Shown here: in pieces, positions 8,428-26,791 of the stretch
How positions within the stretch are numbered: position 1 is the stretch's first letter
How the letters are laid out: every line of letters begins with the position of its first letter
Source: an uncultured virus (IMG/VR IMGVR_UViG_3300035130_000204)
Lineage: Duplodnaviria; Heunggongvirae; Uroviricota; Caudoviricetes
Direction: 5' to 3' (one strand)
IMG/VR virus record: IMGVR_UViG_3300035130_000204
DNA length: 26,791 bases
Made by a program: the position numbers and the translations under genes
The notes under the pieces: model-generated
Told to the model about the DNA's origin: nothing
The model's input: only the letters and a program-made list of their open reading frames with translations
Databases searched by the model: none

Positions 8428-8804
8428 TGAGCTACGAGTACGAGTACGCGATGGGCACCAACGGCACGAGCAATGTTGGCAGCGGCACAGTGCACAGGAT
8501 TGTTAGTCCAGCCCTGCGCCTGAAGTTCGCAGCGCCTTCTACGCCCTCGTTCGACATGCCAGCATACGACAGAGGCTACATCAACGGCAGGGCGGACACC
8601 CCTGCGTCAACTGACGAACCAAGTGCCGATCCGGACGAGCCCGATTTCATGACGACCACGGAAGAATCCTCGGTCGTGCCTTGGGTCATCGGCGGAGGTG
8701 CGGTCATCGCTCTCGGCGTCGGCGGCTACTTTCTCTGGAAGCACCTGACCAAGGAAGATAGCCCTGCTGTTGCGGGGCCATCGATGAACCCCATGGAGCA
8801 GTGA
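8427..8804 (+). CDS. Small single-TM protein
   Basis: AGGAGG RBS and TGATG overlap. MSYEYEYAMGTNG leader, TM VVPWVIGGGAVIALGVGGYFLW, ends SMNPMEQ. Confidence 0.8.
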   Translation: MSYEYEYAMGTNGTSNVGSGTVHRIVSPALRLKFAAPSTPSFDMPAYDRGYINGRADTPASTDEPSADPDEPDFMTTTEESSVVPWVIGGGAVIALGVGGYFLWKHLTKEDSPAVAGPSMNPMEQ

Positions 8805-8811
8805 CGACCCC

Positions 8812-11043: not shown

Positions 11044-11052
11044 GAGAACAAC

Positions 11053-12275: not shown

Positions 12276-12841
12276 GCTATGAGCGACCCATGGGCTCAGA
12301 GGTCTACGCTGCCAGTGCCATCGGCTCGAAGATCATGCCGGGCTGGAACGTCCAGCGCATCACGCCAGAGGGTGAGCGCGGTCCGCTGATGCCGACGCCA
12401 AGGCGCTTCGCGGCACCAATCGGAAACGGCCCGGTGCGACCGTACAAGACGCTCTTCGGCCGTGCCATCGGGCCGCAGGGACCCACGGGTCCCGTGACGG
12501 CACTTGGAGACAACGGCGATCGTCCGTTCACACAGCTCGTGATGGGCGCGGTCATTGTTGGCCTCGGATTTTTCGTTCTATTTCGACCGTTGCGCAAAGA
12601 ACGCAATCCCAAGCGCAAGCTCCTAGGGATGTCACCCAAGGGCGAGCGTCTCTTCGGCGAGCTGAATCCTGAGGACATTCGATACATGCACGTCTACGCC
12701 GTGAAGGACGGTCGTGAACGCTACGTCGGCCAGGTGCTCGACACGGGTGGCGCTTACTTTGCCGTGCTTCCATCGGGCAGACAGGTTCACGCTCATACAG
12801 CCAAGGAAGCTGCCGAGGTCCTGGTTGGGATAGGAGTTTGA
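12272..12841 (+). CDS. Single-TM protein with IGPxG repeats and C-terminal beta-beta-beta-alpha domain
   Basis: ATGA overlap. MSYERPMGS, ALGDNG, TM LVMGAVIVGLGFFVLF, RKERNP. Confidence 0.8.
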   Translation: MSYERPMGSEVYAASAIGSKIMPGWNVQRITPEGERGPLMPTPRRFAAPIGNGPVRPYKTLFGRAIGPQGPTGPVTALGDNGDRPFTQLVMGAVIVGLGFFVLFRPLRKERNPKRKLLGMSPKGERLFGELNPEDIRYMHVYAVKDGRERYVGQVLDTGGAYFAVLPSGRQVHAHTAKEAAEVLVGIGV

Positions 12842-12842
12842 G

Positions 12843-13535
12843 ATGAGCTACGAGTCCAAAGGCGCGCCCGTGATGGTCGAGACGACCATGCCAGGACCAG
12901 GCGGAACGATCGAGGCTCGCAACATAGGTCCTCACGGCCCGACAGGTCCGGACCACGTCGTGGATACCGACTACATGCGCGCCATAGGGCCGCATGGAGC
13001 GCAAGGACCGCTGCGACCGATGCCCATGGAATGGGCTCGCGCCATCGGGCCTGGAGGGGGCCAGGGGCCGCTCATCCCGCTCGAGGGTCTCGGCACCATC
13101 GGCGACTTTATCAGTCGCTATCGCACTGCCATGCTGGTTATTGGCGCTGGTGTGCTCGGATGGATGTTCTGGAAGAAGCAAAAGAGTGGCACAGACATAC
13201 TCACGCGAACGACACCCGAGGGCGACGTCGTTCAGGTGCGCCCCTACAAGGCTGTTCGCGAGCAGATCGTCGTTCCACCAGACGTCGTCAAGCGGCCGAC
13301 GGGTGACGCGGACTGGATGCTCTTCGAGTCCGACGTCAAGGATCGCATCAGCGACTTCAGCCTGGGCGTCGTCGGACCGTCGTACAAGACAAAGGGCAAG
13401 TGGACCGCCGATGTGAACGTCGGGTGGGGCGACTTTCTCAACCTGGGCACGTTCGACACCAGCAACGACGCCGTGATCGCGCTCCTCATGGAGTCCGAAG
13501 ACGTGCCGGTCTCGCACCGAAGGCCGATGGAGTAG
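12843..13535 (+). CDS. Single-TM protein with IGPxG repeats and AP2-like C-terminal domain
   Basis: AGGAG RBS. MSYES leader, three IGP[HG]GxxGP units, EGLG, TM AMLVIGAGVLGWMFW, GKWTADV..LGTFDTSNDA. Confidence 0.8.
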   Translation: MSYESKGAPVMVETTMPGPGGTIEARNIGPHGPTGPDHVVDTDYMRAIGPHGAQGPLRPMPMEWARAIGPGGGQGPLIPLEGLGTIGDFISRYRTAMLVIGAGVLGWMFWKKQKSGTDILTRTTPEGDVVQVRPYKAVREQIVVPPDVVKRPTGDADWMLFESDVKDRISDFSLGVVGPSYKTKGKWTADVNVGWGDFLNLGTFDTSNDAVIALLMESEDVPVSHRRPME

Positions 13536-13540
13536 ATGCC

Positions 13541-14116
13541 ATGAGCTACGACTACCAGGGTGCTTACAACAGGGCCATCGGGACGAAGCTGCTTCCGTCC
13601 AAACAGGGCGTATCAGGCGTTCCAGTCTGGGAGCGCGGCCAGTTCACCTACGGAGCTGGACCGTTCGCGCCTGGAGGCCCCGGCGGCGGCATGACCATCG
13701 GCCCCAGCTACACGCAGCCTGGGCCAGCAACAGGACCAGGCTCGTGTCCGCAGGTCAGCGGCGGTCGTCTGGTTTGCGTGCAGGCGCCGATGACCGAGCG
13801 CGGCATGGAGACTGGAAGAGGTTGGCCACCCGAGATCGGCCCGCAAGAAGAGCAGATGATGGAGGTGGGCTGTGTCGCGACTGGTCGCCGATGTGGTGGA
13901 AGTGCTCGTGCTCCTGGTCAGTATTGGTGCTGCCCGTCTTCGGGCGGCATGCCCATGCCGTTCATTGGCACGCCGTTTCCGCACGGGTCGGGAGGACTCG
14001 GAAACAACGGAAGCTCAGGCGCGACAACCCTGAGGGCTCTAGCAATTGGCGTCGTTGGTTTGGCTGCTGCATGGCTTGCCATGAACCTGATCGCAGGGCC
14101 CGCAAGGGACATGTGA
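13541..14116 (+). CDS. Gly/Pro/Cys-rich protein with C-terminal TM anchor
   Basis: GGAG RBS before ATG 13541. MSYDY leader, YWCC, GGLGNNGS, TM ALAIGVVGLAAAWLAM. Confidence 0.75.
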   Translation: MSYDYQGAYNRAIGTKLLPSKQGVSGVPVWERGQFTYGAGPFAPGGPGGGMTIGPSYTQPGPATGPGSCPQVSGGRLVCVQAPMTERGMETGRGWPPEIGPQEEQMMEVGCVATGRRCGGSARAPGQYWCCPSSGGMPMPFIGTPFPHGSGGLGNNGSSGATTLRALAIGVVGLAAAWLAMNLIAGPARDM

Positions 14117-14133
14117 AGGAAAAGAGACGTGTG

Positions 14134-14499
14134 ATGGGATACGAAAGCAACAACGGTTCCGACATCTGTGACTTCGGCTATTGCGATGAGAGCATGGGCG
14201 CTGCCGCAGCTCCACGAGGCGCTGTGCGACTCGGTGCCACAACCTACGGGAGTCTGCGGATCAACGTCTTCGTGCACGGAAGATGGACAACGACCCGATC
14301 ACGGAGTGTCGCTGATTTGGTGACTGTCACAGGCCGCACAGGGCCTGTGTACACCGGCACCGCAGCCACGCTGCCCTACTCGCTGCGTCTGCCCACGGGG
14401 TCGTACACGGTCACAGTGACAGGCATTGGCAAGCCTCGGCGAAGCCAGACGGTTCGCATCAGGCCGAATCGCATGACTTCGGTCAGGTTCTACGTGTAG
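14134..14499 (+). CDS. Small beta-sandwich (PEGA/carboxypeptidase-regulatory-like) protein
   Basis: MGYESNNG leader. GSLRINV, LPTGSYTVTVTG and SQTVRIRPNRMTSVRF follow the PEGA-like strand pattern. The track start at 13744 overlaps the previous gene, so it was moved. Confidence 0.6.
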   Translation: MGYESNNGSDICDFGYCDESMGAAAAPRGAVRLGATTYGSLRINVFVHGRWTTTRSRSVADLVTVTGRTGPVYTGTAATLPYSLRLPTGSYTVTVTGIGKPRRSQTVRIRPNRMTSVRFYV

Positions 14500-14505
14500 A
14501 CGAAC

Positions 14506-15360
14506 ATGCGGAGCCCAGGACAGGTCGGCTTCCTCGCCTCCCCCGATGGCGCACCCCGGCAGGGTGAGACGCCAGACGAGTCTCGTGACTCATCCGCACG
14601 AGAGCAGCTGCCGCTCGCCCTGCCGGGGCCGACCCAGTGGCTGGTTTACGGCGTCCTCGGGCTCGGGGGAGCCTACGTCCTGACCAAGGTTGCTGAGTGG
14701 CTGCTGAATCCTGAGGACGTCGTTCCCAATCCACCCGAGTGCCCGCTGACCAAGTACTCGTTTGGTGGAATTTCGATGGACGATGGCTTTGGGTCGGCAA
14801 CAGAGTACGAGATCGGCGCAAGGCGAATCGTGGATTCTTGCAGCTGCGTTCTTGGCGAGCTTGGCAAGGGGGCGTACTACGCAGATCGCAATCGTGACAA
14901 GGATTGGTTCGTTGCAGCTCGCATATCGACGGCCTACATCGATGAAAAGGTCAAGCTCGTCGTCTATGTACGTCGCGAGTACTCAAAGCAGCTCTACACC
15001 GATCGCATGGTGCCAGCCAGAATCCTTGAGATGGGCTACCACGACCCTGAGCAGGCCATAGAGTCAGCTCGCAAGAGCGTCTACAGCATCCGGCATGCGG
15101 CACCAGCGTTGATTATGCGTTCCGCTGACATGGCTGAAAGGTTGAGTGGCTGCAACTTGCCTGAGCCGGTCCACAACCTTGCGTTCTGGTGTTACGTGGT
15201 GATCGAGTCGCTCGGCGAGTGCATGCTGGACGGCGTAGAGGACTTTCCGGAGAGAGTCAAGGACCCCTTCGGCATGAACCGACTAGCATCCGACGTTTAC
15301 ATGCTCGAGCATGCGACGAAAAAGTTTTTTGCTGCCCAAGAGGCATCGGGGCGACACTAG
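14506..15360 (+). CDS. Single-TM protein with unknown C-terminal globular domain
   Basis: TM WLVYGVLGLGGAYVL followed by LNPEDVVPNP. Fills the gap between neighbours exactly. Confidence 0.7.
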   Translation: MRSPGQVGFLASPDGAPRQGETPDESRDSSAREQLPLALPGPTQWLVYGVLGLGGAYVLTKVAEWLLNPEDVVPNPPECPLTKYSFGGISMDDGFGSATEYEIGARRIVDSCSCVLGELGKGAYYADRNRDKDWFVAARISTAYIDEKVKLVVYVRREYSKQLYTDRMVPARILEMGYHDPEQAIESARKSVYSIRHAAPALIMRSADMAERLSGCNLPEPVHNLAFWCYVVIESLGECMLDGVEDFPERVKDPFGMNRLASDVYMLEHATKKFFAAQEASGRH

Positions 15361-15381
15361 CTACTTAAGGAGTACGTTAAC

Positions 15382-15909
15382 ATGTTTGACGACAACGAGA
15401 ACAACGGCATCTTCAACGGGGCCAGCGGCATTGGCGACACGCCTGAAGAGGCTGCCCAGGAAGCTCAGGTCGAGGAGGCCACCGCCACGACAGGCGCGCA
15501 GCCCATTCCGGCGATGACCAACCAGAACGTGGCCGCCGCGAACCAGAACGTGCAGGTCACCGCCCAAGGTCCCGCATGGTTGGCTCCGATTCTCGGCGTC
15601 GGTCTGCTCGGCATGGGCATCGTGGCCATGGCCATCCCTGTGGCGTTGGGCGCAGCAGGGGCAGCGCTCGCAGCGCCCAAGGGTCAGCGCAAGGAGCGCA
15701 TGCTCGGCGGCGCCCTCATCGGCCTGGGCGCCTCGATGGCAGCCAGCATGCTCGACCCACAGGGTCGCATCCCGATGTTCCGATCGATCGCAGCCTTCGG
15801 TGGCGGCTACACGTACGCGTTCAAGCGGATTCGCGGCGAATGGCCGACTCCAAGCGCCATCAAGGAGGCCCACACGACGCCGGCACCTGCTCTGCCGGCG
15901 CCTCGGTGA
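15382..15909 (+). CDS. Multi-TM glycine/alanine-rich membrane protein
   Basis: AAGGAG RBS. SGIGD motif, long Gly-zipper-like hydrophobic segments, GGGYT. Confidence 0.8.
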   Translation: MFDDNENNGIFNGASGIGDTPEEAAQEAQVEEATATTGAQPIPAMTNQNVAAANQNVQVTAQGPAWLAPILGVGLLGMGIVAMAIPVALGAAGAALAAPKGQRKERMLGGALIGLGASMAASMLDPQGRIPMFRSIAAFGGGYTYAFKRIRGEWPTPSAIKEAHTTPAPALPAPR

Positions 15910-15915
15910 GGCAGC

Positions 15916-16293
15916 ATGAGCTACGAAGCTCCACGGCTGGAACCTTCAGCGGTGCTCGCTGACGATGCCACATGGCCCGAAGCAACGCCACGGTTCATGG
16001 ATTCCGTGCGATGCCTAGGTGAAAGGCCTCACGGCGTGCGCACGCAGCTTCCGCCTGGCGGCTCCACGCCAGAGTACGAGGCTTACGTCGCGCAATGGTT
16101 GACCTCGCACGACTGCGTTCGTCATGTGCCGGTTACGGGCGAGACCGGACGGACATTCTGCTGTCGCGTCGGACCACCGCTGGTTTTTCCATGGGGACCA
16201 GTCATGGCGTTTGGCCTCGGCGGGGTGCTGCTCGCAGCCTGGTACAGCCGTCGTCGTCGCGCAGCTCTTGAAGAGGCACTGGAGGAGTCCTGA
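15916..16293 (+). CDS. Small Cys-containing protein with C-terminal TM anchor
   Basis: GAGG RBS. MSYEA leader, TFCC, TM VMAFGLGGVLLAAWY followed by RRRR. Confidence 0.75.
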   Translation: MSYEAPRLEPSAVLADDATWPEATPRFMDSVRCLGERPHGVRTQLPPGGSTPEYEAYVAQWLTSHDCVRHVPVTGETGRTFCCRVGPPLVFPWGPVMAFGLGGVLLAAWYSRRRRAALEEALEES

Positions 16294-17060
16294 TGTCTTA
16301 CGATTTCGTAGACCGAGGGGACATGTGGTTCGGCCACGTCTTCGATGTATACGAAGGCGATGACTGGATCGGCGGCGTGATGCAGGGAAAGCAAAACCCA
16401 AGATGGAGCGCCGTCACGCCTTCCGGTGCAAGCGCAGAGTCCCTGCCCTTTGCAACGCGAGAGGAGGGCGCCTGCTGGCTCGATGCTCAAGGCGTTCGAG
16501 TACCCAAGACGAAGAAGTGGCGCTATTCACCGCCTATATACGCCGTTCTCGGGCCGGTCGAGCCGGCCATGGGCAACAACGGATCGGCAACGCCATCGAT
16601 AGCAAGCCGGACGATCGTGGCTTCGCAAGACGCCATCGAACGCGATGCTGGCGAGCCAGAAGATCCAGACATCGTCGACGACCGATGGGAAGCAGCAGGC
16701 GAGGAGCTGCAACACGCGCTGCGGATCTTCCAGCGAAGAACGTGGGAAGACCCTTACGCCATTTTCCTTGCGATCACTGTCGGAGCTGCGCTGGCTCCGG
16801 CAGCCATTGCTGGTGGCATCGCAGGACGCCGAGAAGATGCGACTGCAAAAGGCGTCGCTGTGGGACTCGGAGCCGCTGCAGCCACGGCGCTGCTCATGAA
16901 CCCAGTAAGCGTTTTGATCACGGGGCGTCGTAACGCAATTCCACAGGCGATCATGCACATCGGCGGAGGCTACACGCCGTTCGTTCTCGCGCTTCTCGCT
17001 TCTGCTGGGGTTGGATACGGCGCTTCGTTCCTGGCAACGAGAGACACGGAGACACCATGA
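16293..17060 (+). CDS. Membrane protein: N-terminal beta-beta-beta-alpha domain plus multi-TM domain
   Basis: GGAGGAG RBS and TGATG overlap. MSYDF leader, AMGNNGS, three hydrophobic segments, GGGYT. Confidence 0.8.
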   Translation: MSYDFVDRGDMWFGHVFDVYEGDDWIGGVMQGKQNPRWSAVTPSGASAESLPFATREEGACWLDAQGVRVPKTKKWRYSPPIYAVLGPVEPAMGNNGSATPSIASRTIVASQDAIERDAGEPEDPDIVDDRWEAAGEELQHALRIFQRRTWEDPYAIFLAITVGAALAPAAIAGGIAGRREDATAKGVAVGLGAAAATALLMNPVSVLITGRRNAIPQAIMHIGGGYTPFVLALLASAGVGYGASFLATRDTETP

Positions 17061-17587
17061 GCTACGCCCAGGTCACCCGCGGCAAGCATCTGTTCGGGGG
17101 CGTCTACGAAACGCTCGTCGACGGTGAGGTCATCGGCGTCACAAAGCAAGGGCGCAACAACCCATGGTGGACCCCAGGGGTCAGACCAACCTTGGGTTCC
17201 ATAGAAGACTGGACGCGAAACCCTTTCCGGCTGGCAGTGGTGGTCGCCGTGGGCATCGCAGGGGTGGCAGTGATTACCGAAATGGCCAAGGTGTTCCGCT
17301 TCAAGCGGCGTGTTTACGTCAATCCGTTGAGCGTCTCCGATGCACGAAATCTAGGGCGGATGCTTGGCGTCAACTGGGAATCTGTCGACTACGGACCGGC
17401 ACAGCTGCGTGCCGGCATACTCGTGGAGCAAGAGCACGGGCCTGGTGGCCCGGCTGGAATGATGGGTGATGTCACACACGGTGATACGCTGGAGACGGCC
17501 AAGATAGCGCTGGCGCACCTCGAGGAGCTGCCCGACTACTATATCCGGCTCGCCGAGATGGAAGCACGGGGCGAGTGCGAGGTCTGA
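17057..17587 (+). CDS. Single-TM protein with C-terminal DUF5661-like domain
   Basis: QLRAGILVEQEHG..DVTHGD..TAKIALAHLEELPDYYIRLAEME matches the DUF5661 pattern as I recall it. TM LAVVVAVGIAGVAVI, then YVNP. Confidence 0.8.
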   Translation: MSYAQVTRGKHLFGGVYETLVDGEVIGVTKQGRNNPWWTPGVRPTLGSIEDWTRNPFRLAVVVAVGIAGVAVITEMAKVFRFKRRVYVNPLSVSDARNLGRMLGVNWESVDYGPAQLRAGILVEQEHGPGGPAGMMGDVTHGDTLETAKIALAHLEELPDYYIRLAEMEARGECEV

Positions 17588-17590
17588 GCG

Positions 17591-18931
17591 ATGAAGGACT
17601 CGACCACAAGAGCAGTCACCTGGCTCGACAACTACTCCATTATCCGCGAGTTCGGCGCCTCGAAGTACGCCGCGCAGCAGTGGATGGACGCGAGCAGCGA
17701 CAGCATCCAGGGTGCACTGGTTCAGGCTTCACGTGAAGAGATGGCAGCGGCCTCTGATGAGGCGCGTCTTCGCGACAAGGCGATCGGCCGTACAGTCGGT
17801 GACACCGTCATGGCCATCGGTGCCTCTGTATTCACTGCCGTCGGTGCTACCGGAGTTGGTGCCATCGTCGGCGCCGTCATCGCAGCTGTCGGAGGCATCA
17901 TCAGCGGCCTAACGGAGCTGTTCACGGTCGAGTGTGACGAGTGGGACTGCCCTTGGCCCAAGAGCTTCCACCGTCGCGGCATCGTAGGCGTCGACATCGG
18001 CCGCGTCGATGAGGGTTTTCACCTGCTCGACGACGACAAGCGGTGCATGTACTTCCACCGTCGCTGCACGCTGTACGGATACTTCCATGACGGCCAGATG
18101 ATCGACGGGATCTCCAAGGACCCTGACAACCCGAACGTCACGGGTCGTGTCGTCGGTTGCAACGGCAGCCGTGTCGGCAAGTACTCGCGGCCAATCCGCG
18201 ATGCTTGGATGCGTCACAGCTCGAATCCTCAGGACGTGCCCAAGGGCAGCATCGGCTCGCCGTGGAACGACCCACCGACGACCCGCGCTCACCGCGGCTG
18301 GAAGGTCAGCTGGGTGCTGTACTGGCTTCGCGACAAGATGCCCTGCCGCATCCTCAGCTGCATGGAGGAGATCCTCAAGAACACACAGCGAGGAGACAAG
18401 GACGCCAGCAAGTTCGACGCGCAACGACGTCGAGGTGGCCGTTGGTACGCCTCGATCGTCTGGATGATGAACGACGTATGGGAGATCGGTCAGTCGATCG
18501 GCTCTGAGCGCTTCGAGCAGGTGCTTCGCTCCCAGGGGCAGGACAATGCTGCCGATGTCGTCAAGCGGATCAGGACCGAGCAGCTGGTCTTCGAGCCTGA
18601 GGACCTGCCGTTCCCCTTCTGGCCTGTGATGCGCCACTGCTCCTGGGAGGGACTGCGCAAGACGCTCATCGCCATGAAGCCGATGATTCCGGCCGAGGGC
18701 CCCTGGGCAGGAACGCAACCCGAGGGAGAGCAGCGACGAGTAGTCAAGGTTGGCCTCGCACCGATGATGCCTCGTCGCGTGGTCCCGCTAATTTTCGACC
18801 CCAAGCGGCTGCGGCCAATACCCGCGAAGACAGGTTCGAGGCTTCCCGAGTGGCCTGTTCTGGTTGCAGGAGGCGCTGCAGCCGTCATCGGCGCTGTCGC
18901 TATTTTTCAGGCGCTCAAGAAGAAGGACTAG
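17591..18931 (+). CDS. Cys-rich protein with N-proximal hydrophobic hairpin and C-terminal TM anchor
   Basis: VMAIGASVFTAVGATGVGAIVGAVIAAVGGIISGL, several Cys, WPVLVAGGAAAVIGAVAIF-KKKD. Confidence 0.8.
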   Translation: MKDSTTRAVTWLDNYSIIREFGASKYAAQQWMDASSDSIQGALVQASREEMAAASDEARLRDKAIGRTVGDTVMAIGASVFTAVGATGVGAIVGAVIAAVGGIISGLTELFTVECDEWDCPWPKSFHRRGIVGVDIGRVDEGFHLLDDDKRCMYFHRRCTLYGYFHDGQMIDGISKDPDNPNVTGRVVGCNGSRVGKYSRPIRDAWMRHSSNPQDVPKGSIGSPWNDPPTTRAHRGWKVSWVLYWLRDKMPCRILSCMEEILKNTQRGDKDASKFDAQRRRGGRWYASIVWMMNDVWEIGQSIGSERFEQVLRSQGQDNAADVVKRIRTEQLVFEPEDLPFPFWPVMRHCSWEGLRKTLIAMKPMIPAEGPWAGTQPEGEQRRVVKVGLAPMMPRRVVPLIFDPKRLRPIPAKTGSRLPEWPVLVAGGAAAVIGAVAIFQALKKKD

Positions 18932-18934
18932 GGC

Positions 18935-19558
18935 ATGTACGAGTACGACATCCGTGGCCTTGGCCAGGCAGAGCAACCGCAAAGCGGAGCGGCTGCCAGC
19001 GAGGCGCTCACTTGGATCATCGACACGCCCATAGGTCCAAGAAAACGCGTCGGCATGCACATCGTAGGCCCTAGCGGCTTGCGCCACACCTGCCACTGCT
19101 ACGAAGAGCTTCCTCGCGACATGGTCGCTGCGATTGCCAGACCGTACGCGCTCGAGTTCACGACGGGGTTCTTCGGCAAGAAGTACGAATGCGGATGCGA
19201 GCCTGTCTGGGCATGGTGTCCCGAGGAGATTCGCCCGATCCCTGCTGCGCCAGGCTTTGCAAAGAAAAAGAAGCAGTGCGAGGCGTACAAGCAGCGAGCC
19301 AAGGCGAAGCTGCCCGAGTCCTACAAGGACGTCGAGGATGAGGGGTTTCGGCTGGCAATCGCCCAGAACCTCGGCCGTGCTGCAGGCCTGACCGAGGACC
19401 AGGTGTCTCGGCTCAAGCCAGCCGAGTTCCTGACGGTCGCAGAGGAGAAGTCGCGCCGTGCGGCTGGCATCTGGACCTTGAGCGCTATCACTGTTGCTGC
19501 AGGTGGCGGCTACCTGCTGTGGAGTTTCCTGCGCAGTCGAAAGAAGGCGAAACCATGA
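18935..19558 (+). CDS. Cys-containing protein with C-terminal TM anchor
   Basis: AAGGA upstream. MYEYDIRGLGQ leader (cf. 6129), CHC and CGC motifs, TM IWTLSAITVAAGGGYLLWSFL. Confidence 0.8.
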   Translation: MYEYDIRGLGQAEQPQSGAAASEALTWIIDTPIGPRKRVGMHIVGPSGLRHTCHCYEELPRDMVAAIARPYALEFTTGFFGKKYECGCEPVWAWCPEEIRPIPAAPGFAKKKKQCEAYKQRAKAKLPESYKDVEDEGFRLAIAQNLGRAAGLTEDQVSRLKPAEFLTVAEEKSRRAAGIWTLSAITVAAGGGYLLWSFLRSRKKAKP

Positions 19559-19794
19559 GGTACGAGAGGTACGAGCGGGCCACGTACGGCCCTGGTGACA
19601 TCGCAGCGCTTCCGCCGACCATCGGGCTGACCTCGAGGCGTCCGACGATTGGCTCTGAGGATGCGGGTCGTCCCATTCCGTCGATCCTCGACAGCATGGG
19701 AAACAACAACGGACAGACTGGCAGCTCCAATCCTTGGCTGCTGCCGCTCGGCATCGGGCTCGCCGTTGGCGGCCTGATTTTTCTGGCAAGGTAG
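19555..19794 (+). CDS. Small C-terminal-TM protein, paralog of 19811..20086
   Basis: ATGA overlap. YGPGDIAALP..GLT..PTIGS, SMGNNNG, TM WLLPLGIGLAVGGLIFL. Confidence 0.75.
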   Translation: MRYERYERATYGPGDIAALPPTIGLTSRRPTIGSEDAGRPIPSILDSMGNNNGQTGSSNPWLLPLGIGLAVGGLIFLAR

Positions 19795-19810
19795 CCAGAG
19801 GGAGAACGTC

Positions 19811-20086
<276 letters not shown>

Positions 20087-20295
20087 GTGATGGGTCAGGT
20101 CGGTGTCGCCCCGTGGGCTATCGCATCGTCGAGAGCTATGGAACGCTTCCAGAGGCGCGAGAATACGTCGCTGAGGAGTTCGGACTTCCTCGTCCTGTTC
20201 CCGCTGTCACGGTACTTCCAGCGCTAACGCCCAAGGTCACGCCCAAGCAGCCGTATCTTCGTACGGTGAGCGTCTTCTATCCTCAGGAGAATCAG

Positions 20296-21780
20296 ATGGG
20301 ATACGAATACGAGCAGGCCCTCGTCGGCGTCGACGAGGTCGATGGGACCAGCTACTATTCAACAACTGATACGCCCGGCTGGCCTGCGCCGATTCCCATG
20401 GCCGACAACGGCGAGCAAGCGATCGAGCAAGCTGCTTCTGTTCAGCCCTGGCATCAGCGAATGCCCTGGTGGGGTTGGGCAGCGGCTGGCGCTGGTCTCT
20501 TCGGGTTGTTTCACGTACTGAGGACAAAGCCACTGGTGCGAAACCCTGAAGACGAAGAAGTTGCAGCTATCGACGATGGGCCAGATGAGCAAAGGCTTAC
20601 CGATATGCAGGCAGCTCAGCAGGCCGCAGCCATCTCTGCAGAAGCAGGACTACCTGTTATCCTGTGGGGACCTCCTGGCATAGGCAAGACCGCATGGGTC
20701 GAAGCGCTTGGCAAGACCTTGAGAGCCAAGGTCATCACCGTCATCGGCTCCACTCGTGACCCGACCGACATTGCTGGAACACTCACGCCATCGGGGGATC
20801 TGATCCCTCCGTCGTGGGCTCGAGAAACCCAGGAGCGATCCAGAGCTGGCAAAAAGACCTTGCTGTTTCTCGATGAGTTCTCGTCGATGAGCCCGCTCGT
20901 CCATGCTGCACTGCTTCGCGTTGTCCGTGACAAGATTGCGGGCGACGCGCTGCTAGACCCTGCAGGCACACCGTGCAGGCCGAGTATCCGTGACCGCGGT
21001 TGCGTCTACATCGTCATGGCCGCCAACCGTCCCGAGGAAGGCGCCGGTGCGCTCGAGCTTCCGCCTCCGGCCGCCAACCGCATCGTTCACATCTTCTGGC
21101 CGCGTCCCGACATTGGTGAATGGATCAAAGGCCTGACGCTGGGCTGGGATACGCTCACGATCAGGATTCCAAAGCTTCCGGAGAACTGGAAGCAGACGAA
21201 GGAAGCCAAGCAGGCCTACGCCACCATCGCGGCCTACGTCCAGAAGTCCCAGATGCTCCTTGACATGCCTCAGACCGAAGCCGAGGCTGGCTACGCATGG
21301 CCCTCACCGCGGTCGTGGGAGCTTGCCGCCGAAGGTTACGCTGCGGCCGTAGTGGTCGGAGCGCCCAGAAAGGTGCAGCGGCTCATCGTTGCAGGAGCGG
21401 TCGGCGAGGGACAGGCACTGCAGTTCATGAACTTCTCGGTGCTCAAAGATCTTCCCGATCCAGAAAAGATGCTCAAAGCACCGACTAACTGGAAGGTGCC
21501 TGACACGCCGGACAAGCTCTACCTTGCGCTTTCATCGATGGTCTTCGCCATGATGCGAGACCACTCGCGGCAAAAGTTTGTCAACGCATGGAAGGCCTAC
21601 GCCTATGCCATAAACGAGCGTCCTCAGGATATACCGACCGCCACCCCTGCCATGTACCCTGCAGTCGAGCTGTTCCAAGAGTACCCGATGGCGCCCGTCA
21701 TGAAGGATGTCGGTCCAGAGAACATGAAGCCCTTCGTCAAGATGATGAAGAAAGCCGGCCTGATTCCCAGCACGAAGTAG
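20296..21780 (+). CDS. MoxR-like AAA+ ATPase (AAA_5 type) with N-terminal leader and TM anchor
   Basis: Walker A GPPGIGKT (20668-20691), Walker B LLFLDE, MAAN sensor 1, PAANR arginine finger, WPSPRSWE. AGGAGA RBS before ATG 20296. The frame is also open from GTG 20113. Confidence 0.9.
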   Translation: MGYEYEQALVGVDEVDGTSYYSTTDTPGWPAPIPMADNGEQAIEQAASVQPWHQRMPWWGWAAAGAGLFGLFHVLRTKPLVRNPEDEEVAAIDDGPDEQRLTDMQAAQQAAAISAEAGLPVILWGPPGIGKTAWVEALGKTLRAKVITVIGSTRDPTDIAGTLTPSGDLIPPSWARETQERSRAGKKTLLFLDEFSSMSPLVHAALLRVVRDKIAGDALLDPAGTPCRPSIRDRGCVYIVMAANRPEEGAGALELPPPAANRIVHIFWPRPDIGEWIKGLTLGWDTLTIRIPKLPENWKQTKEAKQAYATIAAYVQKSQMLLDMPQTEAEAGYAWPSPRSWELAAEGYAAAVVVGAPRKVQRLIVAGAVGEGQALQFMNFSVLKDLPDPEKMLKAPTNWKVPDTPDKLYLALSSMVFAMMRDHSRQKFVNAWKAYAYAINERPQDIPTATPAMYPAVELFQEYPMAPVMKDVGPENMKPFVKMMKKAGLIPSTK

Positions 21781-21798: not shown

Positions 21799-23289
21799 AT
21801 GCACGACTATCCGCCTCGCCCGTATCTCGCAAACCCCCAGCCTTCAGCAGAGGTGCTCGAATACCTGCAAGCAGCAAGGATGTACCTGGTTGCACCCAAG
21901 CAGAGGCCGTACCTCGCTGTCCCGGCATTCAAGTTCGAGTACATCGCAACCGAGCGTATCGACACTGCCGCTGTAGATTCGAGCTGGCGTTTCTACTACA
22001 ACGAGGAATACGTCCTGCAGGCCGCAACCGACCCGCAGCTCGGTGGAATTCCATCGATCGCTGCGGTCACCGAGCACGAGCTATGGCACTTGCTGCGAAA
22101 GCACGCTGACCGAGCCGCCGCTGCAGGGGCTGTTACCAAGGCTCAGCTGAAGCTTTTCAACTGGGCAGCCGACATCGAGATCCACTCGGACGAGGCCCTG
22201 GCCAACGCCATTCGCACAACTGGCATAGAGCCGTTGACGCCACAATACTTCAACTTCGAGCCTCATAAGCTCGCCGAGGTGTACTACGCAAAGCTGCTCG
22301 AAAAAATATCCGACCATGGCGAGGACGAGGGTGGCGAATACATCGAGATCGAAGTCGAGGCCCCCAAGGATGCAATGCCACCAGGCGCGCCGCCCCCTCC
22401 AAGCGAAGCACAACGACCAGGTCCCTCTGGTGGCATCGGCGAAGACGGCGAGAAGGGCGACCGCGAAAAGGTCACAATAAAGGTCTACGTTGACCCTGAA
22501 GAGCCAACCGTGGGCGCTGGCGACTGCGGATCTGCCGCTACTGGAGAACCGGCGCCGTGGGAGGAGGCCCCATCAGGGCGCGTTTCGGACGACGAGGCCG
22601 ACATGGCCAGGGCTCAAGTCGCCCAGAGCATCGAAGAGTGGATGAAGCAAGGTGCGCCAGGCATGGGCACACAGGCCTACGACGGCATCATCGAGTGGTC
22701 AAAGAACCTCCTTCACCCGAAGGTGCCTTGGCAGCAGGTGCTCCGTTCCGCATTGCGTAGCGCAGTCGCCTGGGTTTCTGGCCAAACGGAGTATTCCAAG
22801 CGACGCTTCTCTCGTCGCCAATCTGCTATGCCTCACGTCGTTCTTCCTGGCATGGTCCACCCGGTACCTGAGATTGCAGTAGTCATGGACGCCTCAGGCT
22901 CGATGTTCATCCAGGGAGAGCGCGCATCGTTGTTCGAGGAGGCCGTCAGCGAGGTTGCTGGCATACTCAAGAAGTTTGGAAGCACCATTGGCGTAACCGT
23001 ATACAGCGTCGATGCTGCTGTTGGCTGGGCATCGCGTGTATACAGCGCCAGTCAGCTGCGCGGCATCGGAGGTGGCGGTACGAACATGGGCATCGGGATC
23101 GAAGCAGCCGCCAAAGCCAGGCCCAAGCCGCAGGTTATCGTTGTCGTTACCGACGGTGAAACCCCGTGGCCCGAGCGAGGACCACACGGGATCAAGACGG
23201 TCATTGCCATCGTCGGCAACAAAGACCACGTCATCAACTACGGCGATCCACCTCCTCCTTGGGCATGGAAGGTCATCTGGGTGGACTAA
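21799..23289 (+). CDS. DUF2201-like protein: putative HExxH metallopeptidase plus VWA domain
   Basis: RPYLA, TAAVD, HELWH..RKH, FNWAADIEI, acidic/Pro linker, CGSAATG, VPWQQVL, MIDAS DASGS, GGGGT, VTDG. GGAGG RBS. This is the usual partner of this ATPase type. Confidence 0.9.
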   Translation: MHDYPPRPYLANPQPSAEVLEYLQAARMYLVAPKQRPYLAVPAFKFEYIATERIDTAAVDSSWRFYYNEEYVLQAATDPQLGGIPSIAAVTEHELWHLLRKHADRAAAAGAVTKAQLKLFNWAADIEIHSDEALANAIRTTGIEPLTPQYFNFEPHKLAEVYYAKLLEKISDHGEDEGGEYIEIEVEAPKDAMPPGAPPPPSEAQRPGPSGGIGEDGEKGDREKVTIKVYVDPEEPTVGAGDCGSAATGEPAPWEEAPSGRVSDDEADMARAQVAQSIEEWMKQGAPGMGTQAYDGIIEWSKNLLHPKVPWQQVLRSALRSAVAWVSGQTEYSKRRFSRRQSAMPHVVLPGMVHPVPEIAVVMDASGSMFIQGERASLFEEAVSEVAGILKKFGSTIGVTVYSVDAAVGWASRVYSASQLRGIGGGGTNMGIGIEAAAKARPKPQVIVVVTDGETPWPERGPHGIKTVIAIVGNKDHVINYGDPPPPWAWKVIWVD

Positions 23290-23290: not shown

Positions 23291-23959
23291 ATGTCGCGTA
23301 GCCGCATCGTAGCCACCACACAGATCGCGTGCAGCGGCGAAAATCACACGCTATTGGTCGACGCCAACGGCAAGCTGATTCTGCCAGATCACGACGTCGA
23401 CCTCGAGCGTAGCCTTGCCGCTTTGGGCGCCGAGCTTCCGGCATGCATAGTTATGCTCGACCACTGGAAGGCGGAAAGATACCAAGAGCTTACCCTGCCA
23501 CTGCGGCAAGCCGTGTTTCGTGTCAACAAGCGCTACATCGATAAACTGCGAACCGCCATCGACCTTGCAGATTACAGAAAACCGTCTACGCGCTGGGTCG
23601 ATCGTGCTGGTGTCGAAGTCACAATATCTCTGGCCAGCTGGCGTCCCAGCATTGATGGCGAGTCACAGAAGGTATGGGACACAAAACGGTCCTATTCAGG
23701 CACCTTTTTGGATATCAAGGTCCGGCTGGTTTTGTCGCGCTACAGATATATGCTAAAAACATTCAAAAACGGCCTAATACGCGATGCGAAAGGCAAAGAC
23801 TGGGTCGTCCTTTCGATGCGCAAGGAAAAAAAAGGTTCTCCGAACCTGTTCGTTCGCGCCGGACGCCAGGGGCGCGGTCTATCGATTTTTACTGCTCAAG
23901 CTCTCGCTGTTCCCGACAAAGACGCACCGAACGGCTACATCCTCAAAAAGTGGCTTTAG
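23291..23959 (+). CDS. C-H-H-C-tag protein 1, basic C-terminal domain
   Basis: ATG 23291 directly follows the upstream TAA. CSGENH..HDVDLERSLAALGAELPAC. Confidence 0.8.
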   Translation: MSRSRIVATTQIACSGENHTLLVDANGKLILPDHDVDLERSLAALGAELPACIVMLDHWKAERYQELTLPLRQAVFRVNKRYIDKLRTAIDLADYRKPSTRWVDRAGVEVTISLASWRPSIDGESQKVWDTKRSYSGTFLDIKVRLVLSRYRYMLKTFKNGLIRDAKGKDWVVLSMRKEKKGSPNLFVRAGRQGRGLSIFTAQALAVPDKDAPNGYILKKWL

Positions 23960-23962
23960 CCC

Positions 23963-24721
23963 ATGGCCTTCACCTTCCCCTCCTGGTGCTCGAACGAGAT
24001 CCACAAACTCGTTGTTACGCGAGACGGCCGCATGGTCTCTCACGAAAACACGCACGACTTCGATCTGGAGATCGCACTCGCCGAGATGGGAGCCGAGCTG
24101 ACCCACTGCACATGGCACTATCAACGGTGGCTTGCCAACCCGCTCGACTGGGTGCAGGGACCTCTGTTTAATGCTCTTGTCTTTGATGAATACCGAGGAA
24201 AACTCAAGTCTGGACAACGCAAGTCTCAATATCCAATTTTCGCAGACATTTTGAACATCCACTGGCCACCAAGAGACTTCAAATTTCTATCAGGTCTAAT
24301 TCTGCTCGATATGGCACAGCACGCGGTTGCTCAGCTGAGCGATGATGACTACGACATGGACGTCGTCATGCGCCCTATCCGCAGCGCACGTAAGGCTTAC
24401 TCCGACACCAAAGCTAGCCGCGACGTGGTTTTTCACCGTGCGTGTCTTTCGGAGATGTTCAACAGACGGGGGAAGTTCTACGAGAAAAAGATACAAAAGC
24501 GGGACGCCAAAGACAAGGCGATCGTCGACTTTGTCCTTGCCAGTACTGACTGGGCGAGCGGGGGCTATCTCTTTTTCACTGGCGCGAGAACTCTCGACGT
24601 GCTTTACAAAGATTTTCTCCAGCTCGGCAACGCAAAACAACAAGACGCTTGGCTGCGCAGGCGTATTGCTCGTGTCCTACAAAGCCTTACGGACGATCAA
24701 CAATGGCCGTCGATATCCTAG
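23963..24721 (+). CDS. C-H-H-C-tag protein 2, divergent Imm5-like helical C-terminus
   Basis: CSNEIH..HDFDLEIALAEMGAELTHC, LLDMAQHAV..PIRSARK, AWLRRR..WPS. Confidence 0.8.
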   Translation: MAFTFPSWCSNEIHKLVVTRDGRMVSHENTHDFDLEIALAEMGAELTHCTWHYQRWLANPLDWVQGPLFNALVFDEYRGKLKSGQRKSQYPIFADILNIHWPPRDFKFLSGLILLDMAQHAVAQLSDDDYDMDVVMRPIRSARKAYSDTKASRDVVFHRACLSEMFNRRGKFYEKKIQKRDAKDKAIVDFVLASTDWASGGYLFFTGARTLDVLYKDFLQLGNAKQQDAWLRRRIARVLQSLTDDQQWPSIS

Positions 24722-25485
24722 TCGAATGCGGCGAAGAGGAGCACCTGGTTCGTCTACTTCCGGACGACGTCGTCTGGCCCGACGGGTCTCACGACGTAGA
24801 CCTCGAGGAAGCTCTCGTCGAAATGGGGGCTCCACGCTGTCAATGCTTGGTGCTCCGCCGCGCCTGGCTGGGGCTACGAAAGAGCTGGGTCTTTCAGCGC
24901 GTCGAACCTTTCCCTAGAATCGCACCTTTTGCCCCATTGTCAGAAGTTGCATACACGGGACGTGCATCTGCCTACAAGCGTAACGAAGCTCTTGCCCTGC
25001 TGCTAGCCGACTTTTTGGAGCACGCGCTGCAACAGCTGTCTAACCCGCCGGAGCAACTCATTCCGGCCTACGCCGTCATAACTAATGTGCGCAACCAGGT
25101 ATTCCATCGACAGACAACCTCGACGGCTTCGTTGCGCACGGCCACTGCTGCTGCACGCCGCGCGGCAGAAGCTCATATATCAACATCGCCTTCGATATGC
25201 GCAGCAGAGGCCGCGTACCGTGCTGCCAACCAGATTGGATTGTTCATGATAGACGCTTTGTCTCAACGCCACGTGCCCGTACTTCACAAATTGGTGGCGC
25301 ATCAAGGGGCGCCCCCTCTTGCCCATCGTAATATTCTGAGCGCCCTGTGGCACCAAGCACGCACGAAGGGCACAGCGCTCGATCTCCTGCGCCGCCATCT
25401 CATAGCCGAAACCATCTGGCAACGACATCACGCGCTCCGTGTCTACGAGGCGATGATCGAGGGAAAGCCATGGCCGTCTACGTAA
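24703..25485 (+). CDS. C-H-H-C-tag protein 3, Imm5-like helical C-terminus
   Basis: CGEEEH..HDVDLEEALVEMGAPRCQC, LADFLEHAL, Ala-rich helix, ETIWQ..WPS. Start set by alignment with paralogs. Confidence 0.8.
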   Translation: MAVDILVECGEEEHLVRLLPDDVVWPDGSHDVDLEEALVEMGAPRCQCLVLRRAWLGLRKSWVFQRVEPFPRIAPFAPLSEVAYTGRASAYKRNEALALLLADFLEHALQQLSNPPEQLIPAYAVITNVRNQVFHRQTTSTASLRTATAAARRAAEAHISTSPSICAAEAAYRAANQIGLFMIDALSQRHVPVLHKLVAHQGAPPLAHRNILSALWHQARTKGTALDLLRRHLIAETIWQRHHALRVYEAMIEGKPWPST

Positions 25486-26687
25486 CAATCGACTGCTGCG
25501 ACGAAAAACACACTATCGGTCTCGCGGCTGGCAAGCGCGTCATAACTGACCCCGCCGCGCACGACTTCGATCTTGAGCTAAGCCTGGTAGAGATGGGCGC
25601 CGAACCATGCCCGTGTATAAGGTACTGGCAAAATTTTTCGGATAGCGCAGAACTAGCAATGTCAGCTCTGTGGCATTACAAGCGCGGTCACCGCTGGCTG
25701 GAGATAGCGAAGCTTGGCCAATATATAGTCGAGCAGGTTGGCGCAGAGCAAGCAGCAAAAAAGCTTTACGAGGATATCGACTACGGCGAGCACGTAGACG
25801 AAGCCGTCGCTGCCCTGCTTGAGAGAGCAAAGCGCGACGACACCGTAGACATGGGATACTGGGGCGACCGCGACGATCAGCGCATCGTAGATAGCATCGT
25901 TGGCGAGCTACAGGAAGCTATCAACGACGAGAACGCGTACCTCGCTATGGAACTTGTTGTACTTTTGGGCGACTTGTTCCCCAAGGTAGACCCATGGGAG
26001 ATGGACGTTCACGAAGAAGAGTACGACAACGGCCTCGAAGGCGGCGTAACACTTATGTCCGAACGCACTCTTAAATTTTTCGACCGCGACATAGCAGAGT
26101 GGACAAGAGCCTTTGAAAAACGCTACTTCGACGAGATCTACTTTCATTCGTGGGACGAAGTCGAGGATCTATGCGAAGCCTCGCCTGACTACTGCACGCC
26201 AGAGGCGCTGGGTGTCGTTTTGTTTTTTTTGGGCTTCGACGAAGACGAAGAGCCAGAGGTCTCCGAGCCTTACCTAGATGCGCGCCCATGCGCGCCAGCT
26301 GAGGCCGCCGCATGTGAGTACGGCGTTTTGTACGAGCCTGATCTTTCCAACCCCTACATGGGCGGAGCCGAGTGGCGAGAGACGACCGTCGCAGCCTACG
26401 ATACCTACGAGGAATCGCTCAAGGGCATAGAGCAGTCGCAGCAGCTGTCCGACCTGCGCGGTGACGGCAACCTGTACGTCATGACTCCCGTACGGCGTGT
26501 CTCCGAAAAGAAGCTTGCCCAAGCCGTTCGGCGCGTCGAAGAGGAGCGCAAGAACTGGAAGCTGTTCGGCGTCGACGTTGTTCCAGAGCTGACCGACCTC
26601 GACTACCTGAAGCTCCAGTGGCAACCGTGGGACGACCACCTCGAGGAGATGCTGCAGGACGACCTGCTGCCCGAGGAGGAGCTGTGA
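25470..26687 (+). CDS. C-H-H-C-tag protein 4, long acidic C-terminus
   Basis: CCDEKH..HDFDLELSLVEMGAEPCPC. Start set by alignment with paralogs. Confidence 0.8.
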   Translation: MAVYVTIDCCDEKHTIGLAAGKRVITDPAAHDFDLELSLVEMGAEPCPCIRYWQNFSDSAELAMSALWHYKRGHRWLEIAKLGQYIVEQVGAEQAAKKLYEDIDYGEHVDEAVAALLERAKRDDTVDMGYWGDRDDQRIVDSIVGELQEAINDENAYLAMELVVLLGDLFPKVDPWEMDVHEEEYDNGLEGGVTLMSERTLKFFDRDIAEWTRAFEKRYFDEIYFHSWDEVEDLCEASPDYCTPEALGVVLFFLGFDEDEEPEVSEPYLDARPCAPAEAAACEYGVLYEPDLSNPYMGGAEWRETTVAAYDTYEESLKGIEQSQQLSDLRGDGNLYVMTPVRRVSEKKLAQAVRRVEEERKNWKLFGVDVVPELTDLDYLKLQWQPWDDHLEEMLQDDLLPEEEL

Positions 26688-26791
26688 GCTTCAAGCTACC
26701 TGTCAACTGCTCTGACGACGAGGTGCACGAGGTCCAGCTGCTTGATGACGGCACCATGGTGGTTGACGACGATCACGACCTGGAACTCGAG
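26684..26791 (+). CDS. C-H-H-C-tag protein 5 (3'-truncated by window edge; absent from ORF track)
   Basis: GAGGAGGAG RBS and GTGA overlap. Hand translation gives MSFKLPVNCSDDEVHEVQLLDDGTMVVDDDHDLELE, matching the tag. Confidence 0.8.
   Translation, partial: MSFKLPVNCSDDEVHEVQLLDDGTMVVDDDHDLELE

Follow-up and report, generated by a model that had tools for sequence, protein, structure and literature searches.

The DNA analysed here (the window) is a stretch of 26 791 nucleotides from an uncultured virus of the Caudoviricetes, IMG/VR record IMGVR_UViG_3300035130_000204. Three kinds of gene follow one another in its last part: one for a MoxR-class AAA+ ATPase, one for a zincin-like peptidase joined to a von Willebrand factor A (vWA) domain, and a series of genes whose products share an N-terminal domain of about 55 residues, hereafter the tag (Table 1). 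The list of open reading frames shows five tag genes, adjacent or overlapping, which reach the window edge. The ATG of the first lies 1 nt past the stop codon of the peptidase-vWA gene, genes 1 and 2 are separated by 3 nt, and the later genes overlap by 19, 16 and 4 nt. Gene 5 begins with a GTG that overlaps the stop of gene 4, and an alignment also supports its partial tag. A search of the window with the tag HMM gave the five copies and nothing else; the array runs past the window edge, and five is therefore a lower bound. In these respects the original prediction, which described at least five co-directional genes with a common N-terminal tag, starting 1 nt after the vWA stop and open at the window edge, was correct. 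The consensus motif occurs five times in the six-frame translation of the window and never in 200 codon-block shuffles. The five genes are best read as old paralogs. Upstream, the window encodes many small membrane-type proteins one after another, and named phages and plasmids yielded no match when searched for the nearest DNA or protein relatives.

Table 1. Positions of the ATPase, peptidase-vWA and tag genes in the window, with profile matches (E-values)
Feature	Position	Strand	Length	Profile matches
MoxR-class AAA+ ATPase	20113..21780	+	555 aa (longest ORF)	Pfam AAA 1.1e-6, AAA_5 1.3e-5; PHROG 1297 2.5e-45
Zincin-like peptidase-vWA protein	21799..23289	+	496 aa	DUF2201_N 1.6e-23, DUF2201 2.4e-11, VWA_2 1.3e-5; PHROG 1314 3.5e-43
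Tag gene 1	23291..23959	+	222 aa	tag HMM 4e-22
Tag gene 2	23963..24721	+	252 aa	tag HMM 2e-19
Tag gene 3	24703..25485	+	260 aa	tag HMM 1e-16
Tag gene 4	25470..26687	+	405 aa	tag HMM 1e-17
Tag gene 5	26684..26791	+	first 36 residues (rest cut by window end)	tag HMM 5e-08 (partial tag)

The core of the ATPase begins at about residue 160 and is preceded by an N-terminal extension with a hydrophobic stretch, the start codon being uncertain. An HMM built from the ATPases of the actinobacterial operons described below, most of which exceed the cut-off for AAA_5 and bpMoxR, matches the window ATPase with an E-value of 9e-65. In the peptidase-vWA protein both the DUF2201_N and the DUF2201 matches are over the cut-off. 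Alignment shows an intact zincin motif, HELWH, at residues 93–97 and an intact metal-ion-dependent adhesion site (MIDAS), DASGS, at 364–368, followed by GGGT and TDG. The vWA domain (residues 359–479) ends the protein, and apart from it there is just the zincin-like domain at the N-terminus. These two genes belong to the phage pair of MoxR ATPase and metallopeptidase-vWA protein defined by PHROG 1297 and PHROG 1314, which also occurs in the group 2.2 jumbo phages (Iyer et al. 2021, PMC7824862, in the part available). The pair is frequent in phages, with 193 relatives in one scan of IMG/VR. In coliphage N4, gp25 matches DUF2201_N (3.1e-87) and DUF2201 (1.4e-46) and gp24 is the ATPase, and the 15 kb scanned around them contain no tag. 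The pair as described has two parts, no third partner being named in the available part of PMC7824862, whereas the window adds a tagged third gene and four paralogs.

The tag follows the pattern C-x4-H-x14-16-HD..LE..L..GA-x4-C. Its Cys and His residues lie at positions 14/19/34/52, 9/14/31/49, 9/14/30/48 and 9/14/31/49 in genes 1–4, so that the spacing H-x17-C is invariant in the four complete copies, as had been predicted. The C/H/H/C consensus holds far beyond the window: in an alignment of 101 sequences C9, H14, H31, G43 and C49 never vary, and D32 and E36 are each retained in at least 90%. Judging from this conservation, the four invariant Cys and His residues are most likely the ligands of a single zinc ion. 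AlphaFold2 modelled the tag of gene 2 (residues 1–62) with a pLDDT of 94.1, and the predicted fold consists of a β-hairpin, a third strand and two helices. None of the Pfam, PHROG, NCBIfam and PADLOC models covers the tag, which thus matches no characterized family in these collections, and the family is not described in the literature searched. Solved structures provided no clear counterpart either: the best Foldseek match in the PDB has an E-value of 0.19, the best VIA-align score among 48 161 chains is Z 3.2, the best PDB sequence-profile match has an E-value of 0.55, and fold searches that used the tag or full-length gene 1 as query stayed at or under Z 3.8, with no E-value below 0.05. The ESM Atlas produced no usable lead, and the BFVD fold search returned one likely relative, A0A516M218 (E 0.058, probability 1.00). 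The tag and most of what it carries are now annotated as nothing, and the tag merits a family model of its own.

A profile search with the tag retrieved 342 proteins at E<=1e-3. Among the best 150 of these, 104 contain the full C..H..H..G..C pattern, nearly always at the N-terminus, and none has the tag fused to an AAA or DUF2201 domain. About 40 of the 46 proteins without the pattern are RCC1-like repeat proteins, which were set aside as false positives because only profile positions ~10–26 align, in several stretches; four others (P0126, P0134, P0135 and P0148) were missed by the regular expression and look like true tags. Scans of IMG/VR and metagenomes by the tag pattern gave no confirmed locus. 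No Pfam family is present in 95 of 106 tag relatives or in any of 36 viral tag copies. Families found behind the tag include ankyrin, Imm5_like, DUF5983, DUF2087 and HAAS, and one ankyrin form directly adjoins the AAA+/DUF2201 pair (L081). Variable cargo on a constant tag, as predicted from the window, is therefore also a property of the relatives.

The C-terminal parts of the window genes are themselves of several kinds. Gene 1 consists of the tag (residues ~6–60), a helical linker (69–92) and a basic, β-rich C-terminal domain (105–221). The last aligns with the C-terminal domain of the third gene of the actinobacterial operons over 152 columns (hhalign 97.4%, E 1.5e-11; HMM 2e-23), and gene 1 is thus the canonical third component, present in nearly every AAA+/DUF2201/tag operon. 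The canonical C-domain was not found by HMM in genes 2–4, and genes 2–5 are non-canonical followers that carry other C-termini. Pfam at E<=0.1 shows no family in the four complete genes or the partial fifth. The net charges of the parts downstream of the tag are +19, +7, +8 and −50 in genes 1 to 4. These parts had been called basic, Imm5-like twice, and acidic; the first and last descriptions hold for genes 1 and 4, but genes 2 and 3 do not match Pfam PF14423 or PF21805 (Imm5 and Imm5_like) at E<=0.1. Gene 3 does have a remote profile link: its family aligns with a large intermediate cluster over 46 columns (hhalign 98.3%, E 2.2e-14), and the wider cluster includes Imm5_like matches (P0036, P0039 and P0103). 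Aligned directly with the Imm5_like-positive set, the gene 3 family reaches 90.2% over 29 columns only, and the gene 2 family 2.3%, a weak resemblance at most. The C-terminal part of gene 2 forms a small family with P0001 and P0008 as its only relatives; that of gene 4, long and very acidic, forms another, with P0019 (50% identity), P0020 and P0052.

Tandem genes that share an N-terminus and differ in their C-termini recall the cassettes of polymorphic toxins, in which the tag would be a trafficking domain and the C-termini toxins. Imm5_like and ankyrin, both found as cargo, are reportedly families of polymorphic-toxin loci. They are, however, immunity or binding modules and not toxins, and no toxin, secretion, trafficking or peptidase-processing domain was found in the window copies (Pfam, PADLOC and NCBIfam), the 106 relatives or the 36 viral copies, nor were signal peptides or secretion genes seen in the window. 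We therefore regard toxin cassettes as highly improbable. The polymorphic effector system of the original prediction is not supported by these results, nor does it agree with the occurrence of the module as a single-copy operon among housekeeping genes of actinobacterial chromosomes. A counter-defence role, the alternative offered with it, is speculative.

A small Cys/His domain could also be a zinc finger that binds nucleic acids, the tagged proteins then being regulators or DNA-end factors merely co-expressed with the pair. The very basic C-terminal part of gene 1 and the fusions to DUF2087 and HAAS, which we take to be regulator-associated, would suit such a role, as would the DNA ligase, Ku, Gam and ParB genes near the module in three of seven tagged viral loci scanned and the position of N4 gp24 and gp25 among replication genes. 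The tag itself is acidic, however, with a net charge of −4 to −7, the fold searches gave no structural match to DNA-binding zinc fingers, and the ankyrin and Imm5_like cargoes are protein-binding modules, all of which makes nucleic-acid binding improbable.

The association of the tag with the AAA+/DUF2201 pair extends well beyond the window. In 29 of 30 Actinomycetota loci the gene immediately before the tag gene, on the same strand, encodes DUF2201; the 30th has no upstream DNA. The ATPase is present in 25, and four of the other five are cut by a contig end. The similar motif that the original prediction placed beside DUF2201 operons in Actinobacteria is thus real. Among 301 sampled Actinomycetota genomes, the 10 robust tag genomes all fall within the 20 that contain DUF2201 (hypergeometric 1.3e-13), and in all 10 a tag gene stands beside AAA, DUF2201 or both, in the order tag-AAA-DUF2201 or AAA-DUF2201-tag(s). 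Genomes with three, seven and 10 tag matches have a single DUF2201 match each. Of viral contigs with a DUF2201 relative, 25 of 80 carry the tag, with up to six copies per locus; all 36 viral tag matches are on the DUF2201 strand, and the pair is no more than 1.3 kb away from 32 of them. The tag was not found in the other 55 viral loci, in 10 of the 20 DUF2201-positive Actinomycetota genomes or in the scanned N4 region, which indicates that the pair also works without it. A conserved module emerges, composed of a MoxR-class ATPase, a zincin-vWA protein and a CHHC protein, and its third component is recognized by the tag.

The gene neighbourhoods bear on another proposal, namely that the module is a chaperone or protease for virion assembly and that the tagged proteins are its structural or packaged substrates. 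This role has been put forward for the phage pair (Iyer et al. 2021, PMC7824862, in the part available), and a virion structural gene within 7 kb of the module at one locus (L149), as well as the membrane-type proteins upstream in the window, would be compatible with it. However, the neighbours in the tagged viral loci scanned are mostly DNA-metabolism genes, the window has no hallmark structural gene, and on Actinomycetota chromosomes the triad is a single-copy operon with neighbours such as EPSP synthase, a chemotaxis receptor and a penicillin-binding protein. Such a function in virion assembly seems quite improbable. A DNA-damage promoter-like pattern (TGTCRGTG-N8-TANNNT) was present in none of the 30 actinobacterial loci.

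The peptidase site varies among the partners of the tag. Beside tags we compared 40 DUF2201 reading frames, 39 from the loci and the window's own, and 30 have HHxxH, with the catalytic Glu replaced by His. Since these loci have nevertheless kept the tag gene, proteolysis cannot be central to what the tag does across them. This argues against the idea that the tagged proteins are pro-proteins or pure substrates, fed by the ATPase to a peptidase that removes the tag or cuts in the linker and so activates or frees the C-terminal part. Moreover, the AlphaFold2 model of gene 1 (pLDDT 93.9, pTM 0.84) unites tag, linker and C-domain in one confident body that is not obviously detachable. HExxH is, on the other hand, intact in the window, in seven Streptomyces-size loci and in close metagenomic relatives, and peptidolytic processing has been proposed for the phage pair (Iyer et al. 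2021, PMC7824862, in the part available). On balance we consider the pro-protein reading unlikely.

Our preferred explanation, to which we give a probability of about 60%, is that the tag is a docking handle by which variable proteins are plugged into the MoxR-vWA-peptidase machine. The linkage of the tag genes, the conservation of the domain and the prediction of its fold are established by the data above. If other MoxR-vWA pairs are a guide, the vWA/peptidase protein would capture the acidic tag, plausibly through a contact, suggested in the original prediction, between the intact MIDAS and the conserved Asp and Glu that follow the third ligand. D32, which is next to a metal-binding His, could instead be a structural second-shell residue. 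The ATPase would then remodel or release the attached protein; in the window, where HExxH is intact, the cycle may also include cleavage. The tagged protein would act as either client or adaptor. Because genes 2–5 put other C-termini on the same handle, one machine would serve several clients or target-binding adaptors. Predictions of the complex between the DUF2201 protein and the tag, with two Zn and one Mg, scored 0.00 and 0.04, values that speak neither for nor against binding.

In CbbQ/CbbO, NorQ/NorD, RavA/ViaA and the Mg-chelatase BchI/BchD, a MoxR-class ATPase acts on its client by way of a vWA protein, which holds an acidic residue of that client at its MIDAS. Each of these, to our knowledge, serves one dedicated metabolic client and has neither a tag family nor a peptidase domain, and the parallel is a lead to mechanism only. 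F-box proteins and the poxvirus ankyrin/PRANC proteins likewise combine one small conserved docking domain with variable protein-binding parts and occur as tandem paralogs. The likeness is one of analogy only: the tag has no relation to them in sequence or fold, and the machine would be an AAA+/zincin-vWA pair and not a ubiquitin ligase. The ternary systems of Kaur et al. (2020, PMC7159879, in the part available), such as those with VMAP and iSTAND, likewise join a MoxR-vWA chaperone pair to a third protein that is conserved, include variable modules and come in many actinobacterial versions; there the vWA protein is proposed to capture a peptide, which MoxR releases in remodelled form. The CHHC third protein has no Pfam family and so matches neither VMAP nor iSTAND, and no family found on the tag relatives is VMAP or STAND. 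In contrast to those systems, the vWA protein of the window has an N-terminal zincin and no C-terminal effector, and the variability lies on the third component and its paralogs.

A more specific form of the docking reading, which we hold tentatively and think doubtful, is that the CHHC family consists of adaptors whose variable modules seize host or rival proteins for the shared machine to unfold or cleave. The C-terminal modules (ankyrin, Imm5-like helical repeats, acidic or basic domains) would each have a different target. If so, the phage arrays would be a programmable system for host takeover or anti-defence degradation that arose from a housekeeping module, the single-copy operon of actinobacteria. 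A conserved, recognizable third partner with a small, confidently predicted fold offers an experimental handle on the pair. Tag genes also occur as orphans, with no pair nearby, in nine of 20 actinobacterial regions.

From position 20113 to the right edge of the window, every gene lies on the + strand, and the genes are tightly packed. A MoxR-class AAA+ ATPase gene and a gene for a DUF2201 (zincin-vWA) protein, here called the pair, are followed by at least five genes carrying the tag, an N-terminal domain of about 55 residues (C-x4-H-x14-16-HD..LE..L..GA-x4-C); gene 5 reaches the window edge at 26791. This confirms the array of the original prediction, in which five genes with a common N-terminal domain and differing downstream parts start 1 nt after the stop of the VWA gene. 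The six-frame translation has five occurrences of the motif then proposed, compared with 0 in 200 codon-block shuffles, and the tag HMM found no copies in the window beyond these five.

Gene pair and tag genes at the right end of the window
Feature	Position	Strand	Evidence or remark
AAA+ ATPase	20113-21780	+	Pfam AAA 1.1e-6, AAA_5 1.3e-5; PHROG 1297 at 2.5e-45
DUF2201_N (zincin-like) + DUF2201/vWA protein, 496 aa	21799-23289	+	DUF2201_N 1.6e-23; DUF2201 2.4e-11; PHROG 1314 at 3.5e-43
Tag gene 1	23291-23959	+	start 1 nt past stop of DUF2201 gene
Tag gene 2	23963-24721	+	tag at N-terminus
Tag gene 3	24703-25485	+	tag at N-terminus
Tag gene 4	25470-26687	+	tag at N-terminus
Tag gene 5	26684 to window edge	+	partial; tag at N-terminus

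Within the array, genes are separated by 3 nt or overlap by 19, 16 and 4 nt. The Cys/His residues occupy positions 14/19/34/52 in gene 1 and 9/14/30-31/48-49 in genes 2-4, with the HD.[DE]LE..L..[LM]GA pattern, and the parts downstream of the tag have net charges of +19, +7, +8 and -50 in genes 1-4, respectively. The window tags share only 33-43% pairwise identity, so the duplications that produced the array are old. The DUF2201 protein retains an intact HELWH (residues 93-97) and intact MIDAS residues (DASGS at 364, then GGGT and TDG).

None of the Pfam, PHROG, NCBIfam or PADLOC models covers the tag. A profile of the five window tags, compared with 1.84 billion representatives, matched 342 proteins at E<=1e-3, of which 31 reached E<=1e-10, and 104 of the 150 best matches have the full C..H..H..G..C pattern, nearly always N-terminal, in proteins of <520 aa. 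The remaining 46 are mostly long proteins with RCC1-like repeats, which were set aside because several of their stretches match the hairpin part only. An alignment of 101 tags shows no variation at C9, H14, H31, G43 and C49, while >=90% of the sequences keep D32 and E36. The AlphaFold2 model from this alignment is very confident (pLDDT 94.1, pTM 0.77), with predicted strands at 3-9, 12-18 and 24-26 and helices at 33-41 and 48-58. Neither Foldseek against the PDB (best E 0.19) nor VIA-align against 48,161 chains (best Z 3.2) gave a convincing match to this fold, and the best E in a PDB sequence profile search was 0.55; BFVD contains one likely viral relative, A0A516M218 (E 0.058, probability 1.00, TM 0.69). 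The tag is a genuine domain without a name, and because four Cys/His residues are invariant within 55 residues, a putative structural zinc site is its natural reading.

The original prediction also coupled the tag to the AAA+/VWA pair, and a tag HMM search with scoring of gene neighborhoods extended this coupling beyond the window. Scanning one genome per species with the actinobacterial tag sub-family yielded 30 loci, all in Actinomycetota (Solirubrobacterales and Acidimicrobiales). According to HMMs built from the neighboring genes, DUF2201 lies directly upstream of the tag on the same strand in 29 of the 30, the 30th having just 35 bases of preceding sequence. Twenty-five of the loci also have the ATPase; four of the remaining five end at a contig end, and L008 has a RimK/GNAT gene in the place of the ATPase. 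The HMMs of these neighbors match the window ATPase at 9e-65 and the window DUF2201 protein at 3e-65, and the window pair and the actinobacterial operons are therefore the same module. Since all 30 loci stem from one tag sub-family chosen by one peptide pattern, they represent related operons and do not count as 30 independent events; the linkage is supported independently by the window, by the viral loci and by the change in gene order.

Among 301 evenly sampled Actinomycetota genomes, 12 were matched by a broader tag profile (10 robustly, 2 weakly and partially) and 20 by Pfam DUF2201; the DUF2201 set includes all ten robust genomes (hypergeometric 1.3e-13) and neither of the two weak ones. 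The tag adjoins the pair, or whatever part of it the contig contains, in 11 of 20 regions retrieved around tag genes, and nine of the 20 hold orphan tag genes. The order is tag-AAA-DUF2201 in seven loci from 7-10 Mb genomes, DUF2201-tag-tag in genome G210, and AAA-DUF2201-tag-tag-tag in genome G028, the same layout as in the window. Genomes with 10, 7 and 3 tag matches have one DUF2201 match each. In two 2.6-Mb genomes, G043 and G028, with ten and seven tag matches and a single DUF2201, most copies are dispersed orphans, two of them fused to DUF2087.

Scanning IMG/VR by tag pattern found nothing; a scan by DUF2201 alignment recovered 193 relatives, and the 80 best loci among them were examined. 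Of these 80, 25 have tags, with 36 tag matches in all, every one co-oriented with DUF2201; 19 of the matches fall between the ATPase and DUF2201 genes, 16 lie downstream and 1 lies upstream, and 32 are <=1.3 kb from the pair. One 170-kb contig (L150) has six tag matches. Its region 8665-17525 has a window-like build of ATPase, tag gene and DUF2201, then about ten tandem ORFs of about 230 aa; five of these are tag-positive, and the sixth match precedes DUF2201. In several L150 copies the third ligand His is replaced by Tyr. No phage hallmark gene was found in the window, and its viral origin rests on PHROG matches, on relatives in IMG/VR and on a lack of cellular housekeeping genes.

DUF2201 is tag-free in 55 of the best 80 viral loci and in 10 of the 20 DUF2201-positive actinobacterial genomes, and the gp24/gp25 region of N4 has no tag; thus the tag is a frequent third partner of the pair, not an obligatory one. 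The two-gene MoxR/peptidase-vWA pair of phages has already been described (Iyer et al. 2021; PMC7824862), and N4 gp24/gp25 were confirmed as members. The virion assembly role put forward there for the pair is hard to square with single-copy chromosomal operons adjoining housekeeping genes. The MoxR-vWA ternary systems considered in PMC7159879 also have a third component, but of other kinds than the tag protein. A search of the literature on DUF2201, phage MoxR-vWA-metallopeptidase and Imm5/ankyrin/MoxR, supplements aside, turned up no account of the tag or of any third partner of the DUF2201 pair.

The tag-free C-terminal parts were clustered and then compared profile to profile. That of gene 1 groups with the actinobacterial operon proteins (97.4%, E 1.5e-11, 152 columns), and an HMM of the operon-protein C-domain matches gene 1 at 2e-23 and none of genes 2-4; elsewhere it matches 11 of the 25 tag ORFs from actinobacteria and 3 of the 36 from viruses. 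In the AlphaFold2 model, the gene 1 product is a single confident body (pLDDT 93.9, pTM 0.84) in which the tag is followed by two linker helices and a beta-rich domain (105-221), a fold with no solved match by Foldseek (best E 0.069) or VIA (best Z 3.8). The gene 3 family joins a 32-member cluster (98.3% to the cluster core), three members of which are Imm5_like-positive; compared with these three directly, it reaches 90.2% over 29 columns only. Of the two Imm5-like copies first proposed, that in gene 3 would be a remote relative via this cluster, and the link of the gene 2 family is weaker still. The gene 4 part forms a family of its own. Among 106 relatives, ankyrin repeats follow the tag in four, and also in L081, directly beside the pair; other cargo comprises Imm5_like (3), DUF5983 (2), DUF2087 (2 orphan copies) and HAAS (1). 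No known family was found in the cargo of 95 of the 106 relatives or of the 36 viral copies. Toxin or trafficking domains were found nowhere, which speaks against a polymorphic toxin set, and the polymorphic effector system originally envisaged is not borne out.

In phages and bacteria, the small Cys/His domain strictly co-occurs and is strictly co-oriented with a MoxR-class ATPase and a zincin-vWA protein; a single machine has several tags, and their cargo varies. The tag would most likely work as a handle that docks on this machine. Such docking would also be in line with CbbQO- and NorQD-type pairs. It could follow the proposal of Kaur et al. 2020 (PMC7159879) for MoxR-vWA ternary systems, with a peptide captured by the vWA domain and released, remodelled, by MoxR. 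Contact of the tag with the MIDAS would fit, short of proof, the acidic tags (net charge -4 to -7), the conserved D32 and E36 on the predicted first helix, and the intact MIDAS. The ankyrin and Imm5-like cargo favor tagged proteins as target-binding adaptors over clients.

Tagged proteins might instead be pro-proteins cut by the peptidase. However, of the 40 DUF2201 ORFs examined, 30 have HHxxH as the catalytic motif, which limits this reading. HHxGH, with the catalytic Glu replaced, is found in the Solirubrobacterales/Acidimicrobiales-type operons (L001-L030) and also in G028 and G043 (L068, L072). By contrast, the window and the seven loci from Streptomyces-size genomes of 7-10 Mb (L079-L085, where the order is tag-AAA-DUF2201) keep an intact HExxH; proteolysis is optional for the module. 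A rival reading takes the tag as a nucleic-acid-binding finger: the gene 1 tail is basic, and in three of seven tagged viral loci (L094, L116 and L149) genes for ATP-dependent DNA ligase, Ku-like, Mu Gam-like and ParB-like nuclease proteins lie <=7 kb from the module, but the tag itself is acidic. The N4 pair is surrounded by replication genes.

Upstream, window 6051-20113 contains a run of + strand ORFs whose products start with M-[S/G]-Y-[E/D/A], most having a single hydrophobic stretch with a basic residue and Asn-Pro after it; apart from DUF5661 in 17057-17587, they match no Pfam or PHROG family. The N-terminal extension of the AAA ORF has the same features, and this common pattern may represent a shared sorting or membrane signal. 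Two adjacent 91-aa paralogs (19519-19794 and 19811-20086), which immediately precede the ATPase gene, have a common YGPG...P.IG motif and a hydrophobic C-terminal tail. Window 698-5697 encodes sugar/sulfate-modifying enzymes, namely two or three family-2 glycosyltransferases, a Methyltransf_24 protein and two tandem sulfotransferase paralogs, an unusual cargo for a phage-like contig.
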